DNA of 57,570 bases, taken from assembly GCA_017853715.1 (NCBI GenBank), contig JAFMIZ010000006.1, positions 1 to 57,570 on the forward strand, read 5' to 3'. The position numbers and the translations under genes are program-made. The DNA comes from Pedosphaera sp. (GTDB lineage: Bacteria; Verrucomicrobiota; Verrucomicrobiia; Limisphaerales; DSYF01). The notes beneath the pieces are model-generated. The model saw only the letters and a list, made by a program, of their open reading frames with translations. It did no database searches and had not been told where the DNA came from. Shown piece after piece: positions 1 to 55,322 of the stretch (position 1 is the stretch's first letter; every line of letters starts with the position of its first letter).

Positions 1-1784
1 TCGGGGGTGTTCTTGCCCATGTAGAAGGTCAGGATGTTCGAGACATCGTGCTTGGGGGCGTATTCCACCTTGCTCAACTTCATTCCCTTGCCGATGAATT
101 GCGCGAACTCCTTGGGGCTGATTTCACCCAGACCTTTGAAGCGCGTGATCTCGCAGCTCCTGCCCAGCTTGGCGCTCGCCGTGTCGCGCTCCGCTTCGCT
201 GTAGCAGTAAATCGTCTCCTGCTTATTGCGCACGCGGAACAGCGGCGTTTCCAGCACGTAGAGATGGCCGTTGTGGACCAGTTGCTCGAAGAACTTGAAG
301 AAATAGGTGATGAGCAGATTGCGGATGTGCAGGCCGTCCACGTCGGCGTCGGTGGCCAGAATCACCTTCTCGTAGCGCAGCTTCTCGATGTTGTCCTCGA
401 TGTCGAGGGCGCACATGAGGTTATACATCTCGTCGTTCTTGTAGACGATGTCACGTTTGAGGTCCCAAACGTTGAGCGGCTTGCCCTTGAGCGTGAACAC
501 CGCCTGTGAATTAACATCGCGGCAGCTCGTGATGGAGCCGGCGGCGGATTGACCTTCGCAGATGAAGATCATGGATTCCTTCTCACGACCCTTGGCGGTG
601 TTGTAGTGGTTCTTGCAATCCTTGAGCTGCGGGATGCGGAGCGTGACAGCCCTGGCGCGTTCGCGTGCGAGCTTCTTCACGTCCTGCAATTCCTTCCGCA
701 GCGCCTTGGTATCCTCGACCTTCGCCAGAATCTGGTCAGCCACCTGTTTGTTACGGCTGAAGAACAGGAGCAGTTCCTCGCGCACTTTGTTGACCAGTTC
801 GGTGCGGATTTCCGTGTTGCCCAGCTTGTTTTTGGTCTGGGATTCAAATAGCGGATCCTTCAGACGGATCGCCACCGCGCCCACCATGCATTCACGGACA
901 TCGTCGCCGTCGTAGCTTTTCTTAGCGTGCTCGTTGACCGCCTTCAGCAGGCCCTCGCGGAAGGCGCTCAGGTGGGTGCCGCCGTCGCTGGTGTACTGAC
1001 CGTTGACAAAGGAATAAAACGACTCGCCGTAACGGCTATTCGTATGCGTGAAGCAGAACTCCAACGTCTTGCCCGTGTAGTGCAGCGGGGGATAGATGGG
1101 GTCCGACCCGTCACTCTCCAAGTCTTCCATCACCAGATCCATCAGGCCGTGGCGCGAGACGAACTCCTTGCCGTTGAAGATCAGGCGCAGGCCGCTGTTC
1201 AGATAACTGTAATGTCGCAGGCGGCGTTCGATGAACTCCGGCTTGAACGCGCTGTCCTTGAAGATGGTCGGGTCCGGCTCGAAAGAGATGAACGTGCCGT
1301 TGGGCTCCTTGGTCTTGCCTTCGTCCTTCTTCTTCAGCTTGCCCTTGCTGAACTGGGCCTCGACGTATTCGCCATCACGATGACTGCGGACGATGAATTC
1401 CCTGGAGAGCGCGTTGACGGCCTTGGTGCCGACGCCGTTGAGGCCGACGCTGAACTGGAACACGTCGTCATTGTATTTCGCGCCGGTGTTGATCTGGCTG
1501 ACGCACTCGACGACCTTGCCCAGCGGGATGCCGCGGCCAAAATCGCGGACGCAGACGCAATTGTCCTCCACGCTGATCTCGACGTGCTTGCCGTGGCCCA
1601 TGATAAATTCATCGATGGCGTTATCGATGACCTCCTTGAGCAGGATATAGCAACCGTCGTCGTAATGCGCGCCGGTGCCGATGCGCCCGATATACATGCC
1701 GGTGCGCAGGCGGATGTGCTCGATGCTGGAGAGGGTCTTGACCTTGCTCTCGTCGTAATTGTGTTTCGTCTTTTCGTCAGCCAT
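1..1784 (-). CDS. parE: Type IIA topoisomerase B subunit (topoisomerase IV ParE / GyrB family), 3' end truncated by window edge
   Basis: Hand translation from ATG at 1784: MADEKTKHNYDESKVKTLSSIEHIRLRTGMYIG...EVIDNAIDE (GHKL ATPase), GLNGVG, TOPRIM EGQSA...LKGKPLNV, ATDADVDGLHI. Absent from the ORF track because no stop lies in the window; parE vs gyrB is an inference. Confidence 0.88.
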   Translation of the reverse strand, partial: MADEKTKHNYDESKVKTLSSIEHIRLRTGMYIGRIGTGAHYDDGCYILLKEVIDNAIDEFIMGHGKHVEISVEDNCVCVRDFGRGIPLGKVVECVSQINTGAKYNDDVFQFSVGLNGVGTKAVNALSREFIVRSHRDGEYVEAQFSKGKLKKKDEGKTKEPNGTFISFEPDPTIFKDSAFKPEFIERRLRHYSYLNSGLRLIFNGKEFVSRHGLMDLVMEDLESDGSDPIYPPLHYTGKTLEFCFTHTNSRYGESFYSFVNGQYTSDGGTHLSAFREGLLKAVNEHAKKSYDGDDVRECMVGAVAIRLKDPLFESQTKNKLGNTEIRTELVNKVREELLLFFSRNKQVADQILAKVEDTKALRKELQDVKKLARERARAVTLRIPQLKDCKNHYNTAKGREKESMIFICEGQSAAGSITSCRDVNSQAVFTLKGKPLNVWDLKRDIVYKNDEMYNLMCALDIEDNIEKLRYEKVILATDADVDGLHIRNLLITYFFKFFEQLVHNGHLYVLETPLFRVRNKQETIYCYSEAERDTASAKLGRSCEITRFKGLGEISPKEFAQFIGKGMKLSKVEYAPKHDVSNILTFYMGKNTP

Positions 1785-37395: not shown

Positions 37396-38349
37396 TCAGA
37401 AGTACCGCACGAACGTCTTCTTCTTGAGCTTGTTGATGTACTCGTCGGCGAGGCGAGATTGTTCTTCGAGGGCAAGGTTGCGCTCGATTTCGTCACGCAC
37501 TTCGGCGATCGGCCGCGCATGGGCGGGCTTGGCCTCTTCAACCAGCATGATGAAGCAGGCGCTGTCGGTCTGGATGACCGGGCTGACTTCCCCAGCCTTC
37601 AAGGTGAAGGCAACGTCTGCCAACTCCTTACGCAAGGATGAACGCGTGCCCCACCCCCAGTCCCCGCCTTCGCCTCGCTGTGAACCCGTGGAATAGACCG
37701 ATGCCATCTCGGCGAACTGCACCCCCTCCTTGAGTTTGGTGATGATTTCCTCGGCGAGCTGGACGGTGTTGGTGTCATCCGCCCCGGTCTTATTGAGCAC
37801 GATCATGCGTAACTTGACCTGGTCCTCCACTTGATAATCCGCCGCGTGAGCCTTGTAATACTCCTCGATCTTTGCCGGTGAAATGACGGGGTCGGAGGGG
37901 ATGTTTTGGGAACGCAGCGCACGCACGATGATCTGATCACGGATTTGCTGGCGATACTCCTCGATGGTTTGACCGCGCGCACGGAGCGTCTGGATCATCG
38001 TCTTGCGATCGTTGAACTCGCTCTTGATCTGGTCCTGAATGGCGTCCTCGAAGTAGGACTCGGGCAGGTTGTAACCGGAGGCCTTGAAGTCTTGGAGGAC
38101 TAATTGCCGTTGCACCAACTGCTCCAAACTGGCGGCGAGCAGTTCTCCGACCTTATCATTAAACTTCTGCGGCTCGCCGCGCAGCTGGCGTCGGGCGGTC
38201 TCGATCGCCGGGGCAGCGAACAGCTCCACCTCTTGGTAGGTAATGACCGAATCGTGCACGATGGCCTTCACGCCGCTGACCAACTCAGCACGGACCATTC
38301 CTGAGAGCAGCGACGTCAGGACCAAGAGGGCATATGTTTGCCGAAACAT
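37396..38349 (-). CDS. surA: SurA-like parvulin peptidyl-prolyl isomerase
   Basis: Signal peptide, SurA N-domain, F..MA..YS.G...GG.WGW parvulin motif; directly upstream of pdxA. Confidence 0.8.
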   Translation of the reverse strand: MFRQTYALLVLTSLLSGMVRAELVSGVKAIVHDSVITYQEVELFAAPAIETARRQLRGEPQKFNDKVGELLAASLEQLVQRQLVLQDFKASGYNLPESYFEDAIQDQIKSEFNDRKTMIQTLRARGQTIEEYRQQIRDQIIVRALRSQNIPSDPVISPAKIEEYYKAHAADYQVEDQVKLRMIVLNKTGADDTNTVQLAEEIITKLKEGVQFAEMASVYSTGSQRGEGGDWGWGTRSSLRKELADVAFTLKAGEVSPVIQTDSACFIMLVEEAKPAHARPIAEVRDEIERNLALEEQSRLADEYINKLKKKTFVRYF

Positions 38350-38355
38350 GAGCGC

Positions 38356-38383
38356 ATCCTAACAACCGGACCCCCGGGGTCAA
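38356..38383 (-). promoter_or_regulatory. Sigma70-like promoter of surA (predicted leaderless transcript)
   Basis: TTGACC-16 nt-(TGt)TAGGAT, then 6 nt to ATG; no SD. Confidence 0.6.
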
Positions 38384-38400
38384 GCGCGCCACCGGGCCGC

Positions 38401-38429
38401 TTGACGCTGGCTGGGGGGATCCGTAGGGT
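38401..38429 (+). promoter_or_regulatory. Sigma70-like promoter of the aro leader / aroF
   Basis: TTGACG-17 nt-TAGGGT, then 6 nt to ATG 38436. Confidence 0.65.
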
Positions 38430-38435
38430 TGCACC

Positions 38436-38516
38436 ATGAACCCTGTCACCCGCTTCAGCTTTGTATTTGGCTTCCGGTATTTTTGGACGGAATCCACGAA
38501 CTTGCGGCAGCACTAA
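38436..38516 (+). CDS. Aromatic-rich leader peptide MNPVTRFSFVFGFRYFWTESTNLRQH
   Basis: 5 Phe, 1 Tyr and 1 Trp within codons 7-17; upstream of DAHP synthase and of a terminator. Confidence 0.82.
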   Translation: MNPVTRFSFVFGFRYFWTESTNLRQH

Positions 38517-38540
38517 AGTAGAACCCAAATGAGACCAGAC

Positions 38541-38569
38541 GCCGCAGGTCGCCACGCCTGCGGTTTTTT
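38541..38569 (+). terminator. Attenuator terminator upstream of aroF
   Basis: CCGCAGG-TCGCCACG-CCTGCGG followed by TTTTTT, about 30 nt before the aroF ATG. Confidence 0.85.
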
Positions 38570-38600
38570 GTGAGGCTCCGGCCCAAATCAAAGGAACAAA

Positions 38601-39617
38601 ATGATCATCGTATTGAAACCCAAAACTCCACCTGCGCAGGAGAAGCGGGTGTTGGCTGAGATCCGCCGGCTGGGCTATACACCGCACGTCATGCGCGGCG
38701 TGGCGCGCGTGGTAATTGGGGCCATCGGCGACGAGCGCACCCACAAGTCCCTCGAAGTGTTGATGACCTGGCCGCAGGTCGAGAGCGTGATGCCAGTGCA
38801 GAAGCGCTTCAAACTGGTCAGTCGCGAAGCGCACCCGCAAAGTTCCACCATCAAGGTGGGCAAGAATGTCGTCATCGGCGGTGGTAACTTCCACGTCATG
38901 GCCGGTCCGTGCTCGGTTGAGGATGAAAAGCAACTGATGACCACTGCCGTAGCGGTGAAGAAGGCTGGCGCCACCATCCTGCGCGGCGGAGCATTCAAGC
39001 CACGCACGTCGCCCTACGAATTCCAAGGCCTGGGCGAAAAGGGATTGAAGCTGCTGGCCAATGCGCGCAAGGAAACGGGCTTGCCGGTCATCACCGAGCT
39101 GCTCTCGGAACAACAAGCCGAGATGGTGGCTGAATACGCAGACATCCTGCAGATCGGCACCCGCAACGCACAAAACTTCCAACTGCTCATCGCGGCCGCA
39201 AAAACGGGGCGGCCCGTCCTGCTCAAACGTGGCATGTGCATGCGTATCGAGGAATGGCTGCTGGCGGGTGAATACATCCTCGCCAACGAAAACCCCAACC
39301 TGATGTTCTGCGAGCGCGGCATTCGCACGTTCGAGACTTACACCCGTAACACGCTCGACCTCTCGACCATCCCAGTCATCAAGCGCGAGTCGCACTCACC
39401 TATTGTGATCGATCCCAGCCAGGGTGCGGGACGTGCAGACTTGGTGGCGGCGATGTGCAAAGGTGCCGTAGCCATGGGCGCTGATGCCTTGCTGATTGAA
39501 GTGCATCCGAATCCAACGACAGCTTGGAGTGATGCCGCGCAGCAATTGTCATTCGACGGGTTTGCCAAGCTGATGAGGGAACTCAAGCCGTTCATTGCTG
39601 CCGCCGGGATGAAGTGA
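38601..39617 (+). CDS. aroF: 3-deoxy-7-phosphoheptulonate (DAHP) synthase, type I-beta with N-terminal regulatory domain
   Basis: MAGPCSVE, RGGAFKPRTSPY.FQG, QIGTRN.QN, LKRG, CERGIRTFE, IEVHP. Confidence 0.95.
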   Translation: MIIVLKPKTPPAQEKRVLAEIRRLGYTPHVMRGVARVVIGAIGDERTHKSLEVLMTWPQVESVMPVQKRFKLVSREAHPQSSTIKVGKNVVIGGGNFHVMAGPCSVEDEKQLMTTAVAVKKAGATILRGGAFKPRTSPYEFQGLGEKGLKLLANARKETGLPVITELLSEQQAEMVAEYADILQIGTRNAQNFQLLIAAAKTGRPVLLKRGMCMRIEEWLLAGEYILANENPNLMFCERGIRTFETYTRNTLDLSTIPVIKRESHSPIVIDPSQGAGRADLVAAMCKGAVAMGADALLIEVHPNPTTAWSDAAQQLSFDGFAKLMRELKPFIAAAGMK

Positions 39618-39630
39618 CGCGAAGTGATCG

Positions 39631-43596
<3,966 letters not shown>

Positions 43597-55245: not shown

Positions 55246-55322
55246 TGGAGCGAGCGAAGGGATTCGAACCCTCGACAATCACGTTGGCAACGTGATGCTC
55301 TACCAGGCTGAGCTACGCTCGC
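55246..55322 (-). tRNA. tRNA-Gly (GCC)
   Basis: Reverse complement GCGAGCG...TCACG-TTGCCAA-CGTGA...GGTTCGAATCC...CGCTCGC-T-CCA forms a cloverleaf with encoded CCA. Confidence 0.97.

Follow-up and report, generated by a model that had tools for sequence, protein, structure and literature searches.

The gene for 3-deoxy-D-arabino-heptulosonate 7-phosphate (DAHP) synthase, aroF, in a 57,570-nucleotide (nt) stretch of a Pedosphaera sp. genome (contig JAFMIZ010000006.1 of assembly GCA_017853715.1, positions 1 to 57,570; hereafter the window) is very probably governed by a ribosome-mediated, or leader-peptide, transcription attenuator with the four-segment layout of Escherichia coli trpL. This reading is drawn from a conserved leader, from aromatic codons lying in its frame, from a segment 2 that co-varies with the terminator, and from a 1:2 hairpin that would sequester that segment. 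As judged by sequence comparison, the elements are in place and conserved, their pairings exclude one another and they co-vary, and from them we infer a transcription start beside the leader, translation of the leader, termination ahead of aroF and a response to starvation.

The region had been singled out by an earlier reading of the letters alone (the sequence-only reading), and its observation is real. Its interpretation is supported as largely right by the comparison with relatives, because every structural element that it named is present and conserved with the expected properties. The promoter reads exactly as it was described, TTGACG-17-TAGGGT with 6 nt (tgcacc) to the ATG at 38436, and recurs in relatives; the 26-codon upstream open reading frame (uORF) with five Phe, one Tyr and one Trp codon was found again, in a frame that is enriched in such codons across relatives. 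The terminator claimed at 38541-38569 before aroF was likewise recovered, its antiterminator pairs as stated (38501-38508 with 38541-38548), and the downstream gene is a DAHP synthase according to both Pfam and NCBIfam. The coordinates of all elements are collected in Table 1.

An aromatic leader frame behind a conserved promoter

The leader peptide MNPVTRFSFVFGFRYFWTESTNLRQH has 7 aromatic residues among its 26 (5 Phe, 1 Tyr, 1 Trp), and thus represents a short open reading frame (ORF) upstream of a biosynthetic gene and rich in codons for the products of the pathway. With the DAHP synthase protein as query, 30 loci from 41 related genomes and 80 loci from named metagenome-assembled genomes (MAGs; mostly titled Verrucomicrobiota, Limisphaerales or Pedosphaera, with a few bin names evidently wrong) yielded 101 distinct upstream regions. 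A rule scan required TTGAC[N] and TAnnnT separated by 16-18 nt, a start codon 3-11 nt further on, and a short ORF in that frame encoding three or more aromatic residues; it found the full arrangement in 79 of the 101 loci, 76 of which have a terminator no more than 60 nt from the stop codon. The arrangement is beyond chance because it is conserved in the relatives. The peptides are 20-32 amino acids (aa) long, begin with either ATG (41) or GTG (37), and are conserved at both ends (MN... and ...LRxGLR); Phe occurs in all 79 of them, Tyr in 76 and Trp in 71, and 69 have the three together.

This first set of 79 ORFs was picked by a rule that includes the aromatic residues and is thus circular with respect to composition, and the composition was redone with ORFs chosen by promoter position only. 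A TTGAC-16..18-TAnnnT promoter followed 3-12 nt later by ATG or GTG is present at 80 of the 101 loci and opens an ORF of 10-45 aa in 74 of these. At least three aromatic residues occur in 73 of the 74, with a mean Phe/Tyr/Trp share of 25%, against 7.9% and 8.6% in the two remaining frames; the long ORFs of the source genome have 4.0% Phe, 2.1% Tyr and 1.4% Trp (7.5% together). The other frames are open for at least 20 codons in just 8/76 and 18/76 leaders. Both Phe codons and both Tyr codons are used. As a side observation, TTT accounts for 80% of the leader Phe codons (229/286 in the 79 relatives' ORFs) versus 31% in the long ORFs of the source genome, and TAT for 52% of the Tyr codons versus 40%, a bias that could represent selection for the slower, wobble-read codon or merely a U-rich loop.

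A covariance model, R1, was built from an alignment (A1) of 72 leaders; L012, L059 and L061, whose terminators are atypical or doubtful, and L098, almost identical to L096, were excluded. Among the 101 distinct Limisphaerales aroF loci the model recovers the leader in 88, and in the source genome (3.02 Mb in 203 contigs, 59.8% G+C, 94% complete) the aroF locus is its sole full match, at 64.9 bits, the next best reaching 19 bits. The distance from stop codon to terminator is 15-40 nt (median 20) and that from terminator to aroF has a median of 38 nt; the conserved nucleotides of the leader include UUUAGCAGC, CCUGCG and GGCUGCG.

The support for the promoter comes from its conservation in relatives and not from the window alone. 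TTGAC[GCAT] is in place at 78 of the 79 loci (TTGACG at 57), the spacer is 16 nt in 67, 17 nt in 9 and 18 nt in 3, and TGn precedes the -10 hexamer in 57. From this hexamer to the start codon there are 6, 7, 8 or 9 nt at 24, 22, 11 and 15 loci, respectively, i.e. at 72/79 in total, a distance that would put a normal transcription start at the start codon or 1-3 nt before it. The conserved promoter geometry therefore points to a leader that is probably leaderless or nearly so; mycobacterial leaderless mRNAs are likewise described as using both ATG and GTG (bioRxiv 10.1101/834739).

The most serious competitor, still an unlikely one, is the same attenuator transcribed from a start further upstream, with a leadered uORF that is initiated independently of a Shine-Dalgarno motif. 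A Shine-Dalgarno core lies within 18 nt upstream of only 6 of the relatives' 79 aroF starts, and at 73 of the 79 loci both the uORF and aroF are devoid of the motif, which suggests that initiation in this order is largely Shine-Dalgarno-independent, in which case a leadered uORF would need no motif either. This alternative also draws on the weak -10 hexamer of the window, which a promoter scan left uncalled, and which counts in its favour. Against it stand the promoter geometry just described, the sharing of that geometry by the ilvB and leuA leaders of the same genome (see below), and the coding end of the divergent surA-like gene at 38349, which leaves just about 85 nt upstream. The spacers upstream of aroF in the relatives are A/C-rich, and the window aroF has AAGGA at 38591-38595.

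Mutually exclusive RNA pairings

In the window an intrinsic terminator stands between the leader ORF and the structural gene, with a stem (38541-38564) of nine pairs, six of them G-C, a loop of six and then TTTTTTG, with six T; folded alone it has -15.9 kcal/mol (z = -3.98). An alignment of 92 sequences (A3) was fitted to the terminator only, with the antiterminator columns unused in fitting; on it 98.5% of the terminator cells are paired, and five pairs are changed on both sides, i.e. compensatory.

The 5′ arm of this terminator has a second partner within the end of the uORF. CUUGCGGC (38501-38508) pairs with GCCGCAGG (38541-38548), which is also how 38498-38555 folds at minimum free energy (-13.5 kcal/mol). 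On A3, 83.1% of the antiterminator cells are paired, versus 10-51% after shifting the partner by 1-3 columns, with 27 cells changed on both sides and a co-variation score of 0.174 versus 0.135; each of these values was reached by none of 500 shuffles. Without any alignment, the best upstream partner of the terminator 5′ arm has a median position of -21 to -8 nt relative to the stop codon; its z averages -1.87 relative to shuffles and is below -2 in 32/76 leaders. Each of the terminator types CCGCCGG, CCGCGGG, GCCGCCC and CCGUCCCGC comes with a matching segment 2: the variant CCGCCGG pairs with GCCGGCUGGCG (L062, L069, L076) and CCGCGGG with CUCGCGG (L014), and in other orders CCGUCCCGCAG pairs with CUGCGGGC, GCCGCCC with GGGCGGCU (z = -4.5) and AAACCGC with GCGGUUU. 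As read from these sequences, segment 2 co-varies with the terminator both within and between orders. The antiterminator excludes the terminator, and the geometry suggests that a ribosome at the stop codon would mask it. Stalling was also simulated, with the ribosome occupying the final aromatic codon and the transcript ending at the terminator loop; 54/76 leaders then have no less than 70% of the 5′ arm paired, and the leader of the window has 100%.

Segment 2 also appears to be the 3′ strand of a 1:2 hairpin (an anti-antiterminator), which is the most stable hairpin within the uORF and whose apical stem-loop carries aromatic codons. In the window the pairs are CCGC 38450-38453 with GCGG 38504-38507, AG/UUUGU with ACGAA/CU, and UUCCG 38472-76 with CGGAA 38488-92. 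In the family, the base of the hairpin is formed by the conserved 'R-F-S-S' codons (UUUAGCAGC or GCGC), whose partner is the CCUGCG region corresponding to segment 2, and the 3′ arm overlaps segment 2 in 66/76 leaders. Across the family, the fold of the uORF region has an average z of -2.87 relative to dinucleotide shuffles (z < -2 in 53/76); 355 of 505 aromatic codons lie inside the hairpin, and in 70/76 leaders at least one occupies the apical loop. The apical stems vary in sequence, with 50 distinct innermost strands among the 76. RNAalifold on MAFFT alignments (72 of the 76 leaders, and 43 selected leaders in three MAFFT modes) recovered the terminator only, and a third covariance model that included the 1:2 helix was dropped, the register of the helix shifting between loci. 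The support for the 1:2 hairpin is thus alignment-free evidence only.

Since segment 1 can pair with the antiterminator strand, the leader would constitute a full trpL-type attenuator of four segments. The sequence-only reading had invoked trpL/pheL logic, and the elements on which it relied are conserved, but its three-segment picture was incomplete, as the 1:2 hairpin had been missed. The comparison of upstream regions of relatives that it proposed turned out much as it would have it for the aromatic runs, which are conserved, and for the terminator and antiterminator, which co-vary; column-wise co-variation was not obtained for the 1:2 helix.

In the proposed mechanism, transcription would start at or a few nt from the ATG at 38436, and a ribosome would translate the 26-codon leader behind RNA polymerase. 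With Phe-, Tyr- and Trp-tRNA charged, the ribosome would reach the stop codon at 38514 and cover segment 2 (38496-38512), which upon ribosome release would re-pair with segment 1; segments 3 and 4 would then form the terminator (38541-38564 and the U-run), and transcription would end before aroF. When any of the aromatic tRNAs is scarce, the ribosome would stall on the codons at 38454-38486, inside the 1:2 hairpin, and hold it open, leaving segment 2, which starts 15-17 nt past the Trp codon, free. The free segment would pair with the terminator 5′ arm (CUUGCGGC/GCCGCAGG) before the 3′ arm is made, and the polymerase would enter aroF.

Several observations weigh against this interpretation or parts of it. 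With regard to the start, a consensus promoter scan of the window did not call the TTGACG/TAGGGT promoter, TAGGGT matching TATAAT at three of six positions, and the absence of a Shine-Dalgarno motif was dropped as an argument for a leaderless start, the aroF starts lacking the motif too. Metatranscriptome contigs (three runs, 5-7% of words) align only within 38868-39700 and none on 38400-38600, and they say nothing on leader start, termination or expression. With regard to structure, the uORF of the window (-16.8 kcal/mol, z = +0.17) is no more stable than its shuffles; column-wise co-variation of the 1:2 helix was not obtained, a search on A3 giving spurious U-G columns only, which is attributed to the register shifts between loci. 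The antiterminator of the window is weak compared with shuffles (z = -1.37) and, at -13.5 kcal/mol with a 32-nt loop, less stable than the terminator (-15.9), and therefore the choice between the two would have to be kinetic. The trpL antiterminator is likewise less stable than its terminator. In the relatives the median gap from the last aromatic codon to segment 2 is 11.5 nt, so that stalling at the final aromatic codon may leave part of segment 2 under the ribosome. At 13 of the 101 loci there is no full R1 match; two of these have no more than 60 nt of upstream sequence, one has the terminator only and one a partial match. Finally, three kinds of codons do not prove three-way sensing, to judge by the analogous leader of Corynebacterium, where Tyr limitation is reported to be ineffective.

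It is improbable that the terminator is governed by RNA alone, through a riboswitch or an element of the T-box-like or protein-binding kind, with the open frame incidental. The conserved nucleotides (UUUAGCAGC, CCUGCG, GGCUGCG) and the alternative hairpins could in principle serve a ligand- or protein-responsive switch, but the aromatic enrichment is restricted to the promoter-anchored frame (25% versus 8%), both Phe and both Tyr codons are used, and peptides from other orders differ in sequence yet keep the aromatic cluster. The parallel ilvB and leuA leaders of the same genome have runs of Val and Leu instead, and there is no Rfam match at E ≤ 10 around the leader or at E ≤ 0.1 in relatives. 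Even less probable is a reading in which the uORF encodes a hydrophobic micro-protein in its own right and the terminator belongs to that gene, aroF having a separate promoter: the peptide is conserved at both ends, but these ends coincide with RNA segments 1 and 2, the terminator 5′ arm has its conserved alternative partner inside the ORF, a median of just 38 nt separates terminator and aroF, and the element accompanies DAHP synthase genes even where the enzyme type differs. Translational control, in which uORF stalling alters access to the aroF start and not termination, has a precedent in some actinobacterial leader ORFs that are described as acting without obvious terminators (PMC1262725, as far as that account goes), but is hardly credible here given a canonical and conserved G+C-rich hairpin with six U and an aroF start about 30 nt past the hairpin, outside any conserved pairing. 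Leader-peptide attenuation remains the preferred reading.

Table 1. Elements of the aroF leader region in window coordinates
Feature	Position	Strand	Basis
-35 hexamer TTGACG	38401..38406	+	direct reading; conserved in relatives
-10 hexamer TAGGGT, spacer 17 nt in the window	38424..38429	+	direct reading; TAnnnT in relatives, mostly TGn before
Leader peptide ORF MNPVTRFSFVFGFRYFWTESTNLRQH, 26 codons + TAA (stop 38514-38516)	38436..38516	+	ORF listing
Candidate segment 1, 5′ strand of 1:2 hairpin (incl. CCGC 38450-38453)	38444..38464	+	minimum-free-energy fold of 38436-38516
Putative regulatory codons Phe7/9/11/13/16 (TTC TTT TTT TTC TTT), Tyr15 TAT, Trp17 TGG	38454..38486	+	translation
Predicted apical stem-loop of 1:2 hairpin, loop GUAUUUUUGGA = Tyr15-Phe16-Trp17 codons UAU UUU UGG	38469..38495	+	folding
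Segment 2 (core CUUGCGGC 38501-38508), partner of segment 1 or terminator 5′ arm	38496..38512	+	folding, family alignment
Segment 3, terminator 5′ arm GCCGCAGGU	38541..38549	+	terminator scan, folding
Segment 4, terminator 3′ arm GCCUGCGGU + U-run	38556..38569	+	terminator scan, folding
aroF-type gene, type I-beta DAHP synthase, 338 aa	38601..39617	+	Pfam + NCBIfam

Distribution, companion leaders and gene context

In a survey of the class with the covariance model, 56 of 151 genomes were matched at E ≤ 0.01, many by the terminator only. For 20 full-length matches outside the order that were inspected, the downstream gene encodes a DAHP synthase of the same type in 14 cases and an AroFGH-type enzyme in 2; the rest comprise a Leu-rich leader before leuA (L134), one leader before an unnamed gene and two false matches. 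Peptides of other orders, such as MKSVHQYISAVRASYYWFYFSQPCLRAVC and MKFTRYAFQFAAASYYFSRPGLERLSG, differ in sequence and keep the aromatic cluster. The two AroFGH-type cases (L120 and L137) come from small genomes (G047 and G058; 1.3-1.8 Mb) of another family of the class, where a type I-alpha DAHP synthase (TIGR00034, 1e-109 and 6e-104) follows the leaders MTSSFYYWFYFTAAVSPGVGSL and MNSSFYFWYFTPAVSSRKGTC, both of which have a terminator and a matching segment 2 (GCGGUUU) of their own. The linkage between leader and DAHP synthase thus survives replacement of the enzyme type by a non-orthologous one. At L133 (contig C7 of G047) the model also matched an ORF resembling a leader, MNLLACSLHHLPSAVSPRENAL, which likewise has the GCGGUUUC/GAAACCGC pairing and a terminator and is followed by a gene for a 236-aa protein that has no NCBIfam match at 1e-10.

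A phylum survey of 151 genomes with a second model, R2, matched 12 genomes at E ≤ 1e-4, and the four long matches that were inspected comprise one true aromatic leader, from the same class, and three look-alikes from terminators or coding sequence. No leader was found in the other classes sampled by R2, a model tuned to one order, which is not evidence of absence.

The source genome was also scanned for a promoter with an abutting short ORF, a terminator and a long ORF, and four places were found: aroF, ilvB, leuA and one weak match that is probably due to chance. The ilvB leader MFGLVRQVKSVLALVVVARAAAGACRS (contig C185, minus strand; L111:2058-2141) has its ATG 7 nt after TTGACC-17-TAGTTT, and its terminator lies 51 nt upstream of a gene for the large subunit of acetolactate synthase (L111:81-1964, minus strand; TIGR00118, 2.4e-204). 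The Leu-rich leuA leader MVTNLNLRLSLNGLLIGSTAVGV (contig C176, minus strand; L112:1871-1942) starts 6 nt after TATGTT, with a terminator 40 nt upstream of a gene for 2-isopropylmalate synthase (L112:111-1781, minus strand; NF002991, 7e-245). Under a strict filter, Val-rich ilvB leaders recur in 19 of 25 and Leu-rich leuA leaders in 10 of 17 relatives' loci, with almost invariant terminators, and this recurrence argues strongly that the lineage uses leader-peptide attenuation.

The regulated gene itself (38601-39617) encodes both the catalytic DAHP_synth_1 domain (PF00793, 4.9e-74) and the N-terminal ferredoxin-like regulatory domain DAHP_snth_FXD (PF18152, 1.2e-18) and matches PRK08673 (1e-136) and NF006421 (455.6 bits, cut-off 335) of NCBIfam, in keeping with a type I-beta enzyme. 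It is monocistronic in the window, standing alone because the flanking genes both run on the other strand: a surA-like gene (37396-38349, minus strand) and pdxA upstream, and downstream a large sensor kinase gene that converges on it. About 85-86 nt separate 38349 from the leader start, and a promoter-like site on the minus strand, TTGACC-16-TAGGAT with TG at 38356-38383, is located just upstream of the surA-like gene; the 86-nt intergenic region would therefore carry two back-to-back promoters. Apart from a tRNA gene at 55249-55322 (minus strand), the whole window has no Rfam match at gathering score.

The 94%-complete source genome yielded neither a type II DAHP synthase nor a second close homologue, the only other match being a 32%-identical frame of 275 aa. 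The gene at 38601-39617 is thus the sole detectable DAHP synthase gene of the source genome, and its leader would therefore gate entry into the aromatic pathway. A trpE-like (anthranilate synthase) gene on contig C3 of the source genome (locus L142) has no leader ORF or terminator within 300 nt upstream by eye inspection, and the aroF leader may thus be the sole tRNA-sensing control of the pathway. Both the leaderless start and the integration of all three tRNA pools, as put forward by the sequence-only reading, are to be taken as predictions. The combined picture, which we regard as possible but a shade more doubtful than probable, is that one leaderless attenuator reads all three aromatic tRNAs and provides the only tRNA-sensing control of the pathway (a single DAHP synthase, no trp leader seen); that it belongs to a class-wide leaderless set at aroF, ilvB and leuA, parallel to the actinobacterial set but separately arisen; and that the aromatic leader has been re-used before a non-orthologous DAHP synthase.

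The aroF leader lends itself as a candidate for sensing Phe, Tyr and Trp supply by one device at the committed step, unlike the Corynebacterium leader, for which an effect of Phe alone is reported. The aroF, ilvB and leuA leaders provide three RNA/peptide families usable for annotating MAGs whose regulation is otherwise opaque, and the promoter-to-start geometry offers indirect evidence for translation of leaderless mRNAs in the lineage. The more interesting features are that all three aromatics are consistently present, that the start is probably leaderless, that the leader also stands before a non-orthologous enzyme, and that ilvB and leuA have companion leaders.

Comparison with known systems

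Attenuation of E. coli aroF was reportedly hypothesised in 1980. Rfam has no model for the element, and full-text searches retrieved no account for this lineage, for which the sequence-only reading had known of no description either: Rfam 15 gave no relevant match at E ≤ 10 in 37800-39200 and none at E ≤ 0.1 in six related leaders, so that the element falls outside the Rfam amino-acid leader families (Trp, Phe, His, Leu, Thr etc.), and the literature searches found no description of leader-peptide attenuation, of a leaderless leader or of an aromatic or DAHP synthase leader for Verrucomicrobiota. The claim to novelty of that reading was nevertheless overstated, as aroR of Corynebacterium, uORFC-13-1 of Acholeplasma and leaderless leader peptides of actinobacteria are known. 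The verrucomicrobial leader, conserved throughout a lineage that has received little study, is a new family, absent from Rfam and in a new phylum, but the kind of regulator is already known from other bacteria.

With trpL and pheL of E. coli, as these are generally described, the leader shares the 2:3 and 3:4 pairings, a putative 1:2 pairing with regulatory codons in or near it, the predicted masking of segment 2 by a ribosome at the stop codon and an intrinsic terminator. In contrast, the E. coli leaders have a 5′ untranslated region with a ribosome-binding site, sense one amino acid each and control operons of the terminal branches and not the common first step.

The closest functional parallel is in Corynebacterium glutamicum, where leader peptides are described before trpE, leuA, ilvB and aroF, that of aroF containing Phe-Tyr-Phe (Mentz et al. 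2013, PMC4046766), and where the ilvBNC leader is said to sit on a leaderless mRNA. Read-through at aroR is reported to rise under limitation of Phe and not of Tyr (Neshat et al. 2014, as summarized in a review, PMC11802643). As far as these accounts go, the two systems share an aromatic-codon leader before a DAHP synthase gene, an increase of read-through upon stalling (predicted in the verrucomicrobial case) and membership in a set with ilvB and leuA leaders, to which the corynebacterial set adds trp. By the same accounts AroR has only Phe-Tyr-Phe and only Phe acts, whereas the verrucomicrobial peptides have 5-9 aromatic residues, with Trp in 71/79. The two belong to different phyla and are set side by side by description, with no sequence match claimed.

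The Acholeplasma element uORFC-13-1 (Brewer et al. 2021, PMC8632094) was likewise predicted by comparison and consists of a conserved uORF with Phe codons and an intrinsic terminator, exclusively before aroF. It has a ribosome-binding site and 'at least one' Phe from a U-run, and is known from 24 representatives in Mollicutes, whereas in the leader from Verrucomicrobiia the start abuts the promoter, three aromatics are encoded, and an explicit antiterminator and a putative anti-antiterminator can be delineated. Finally, the polycysteine uORFs of mycobacteria (10.1101/834739) are described as leaderless short ORFs with AUG or GUG starts, in which stalling senses one amino acid and the targets are biosynthetic, but in that account they are specific for Cys and act on operonic expression, not necessarily via an intrinsic terminator. 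Set against these systems, the aroF leader very probably extends classical leader-peptide attenuation, with a leader that is probably leaderless, to Verrucomicrobiota.

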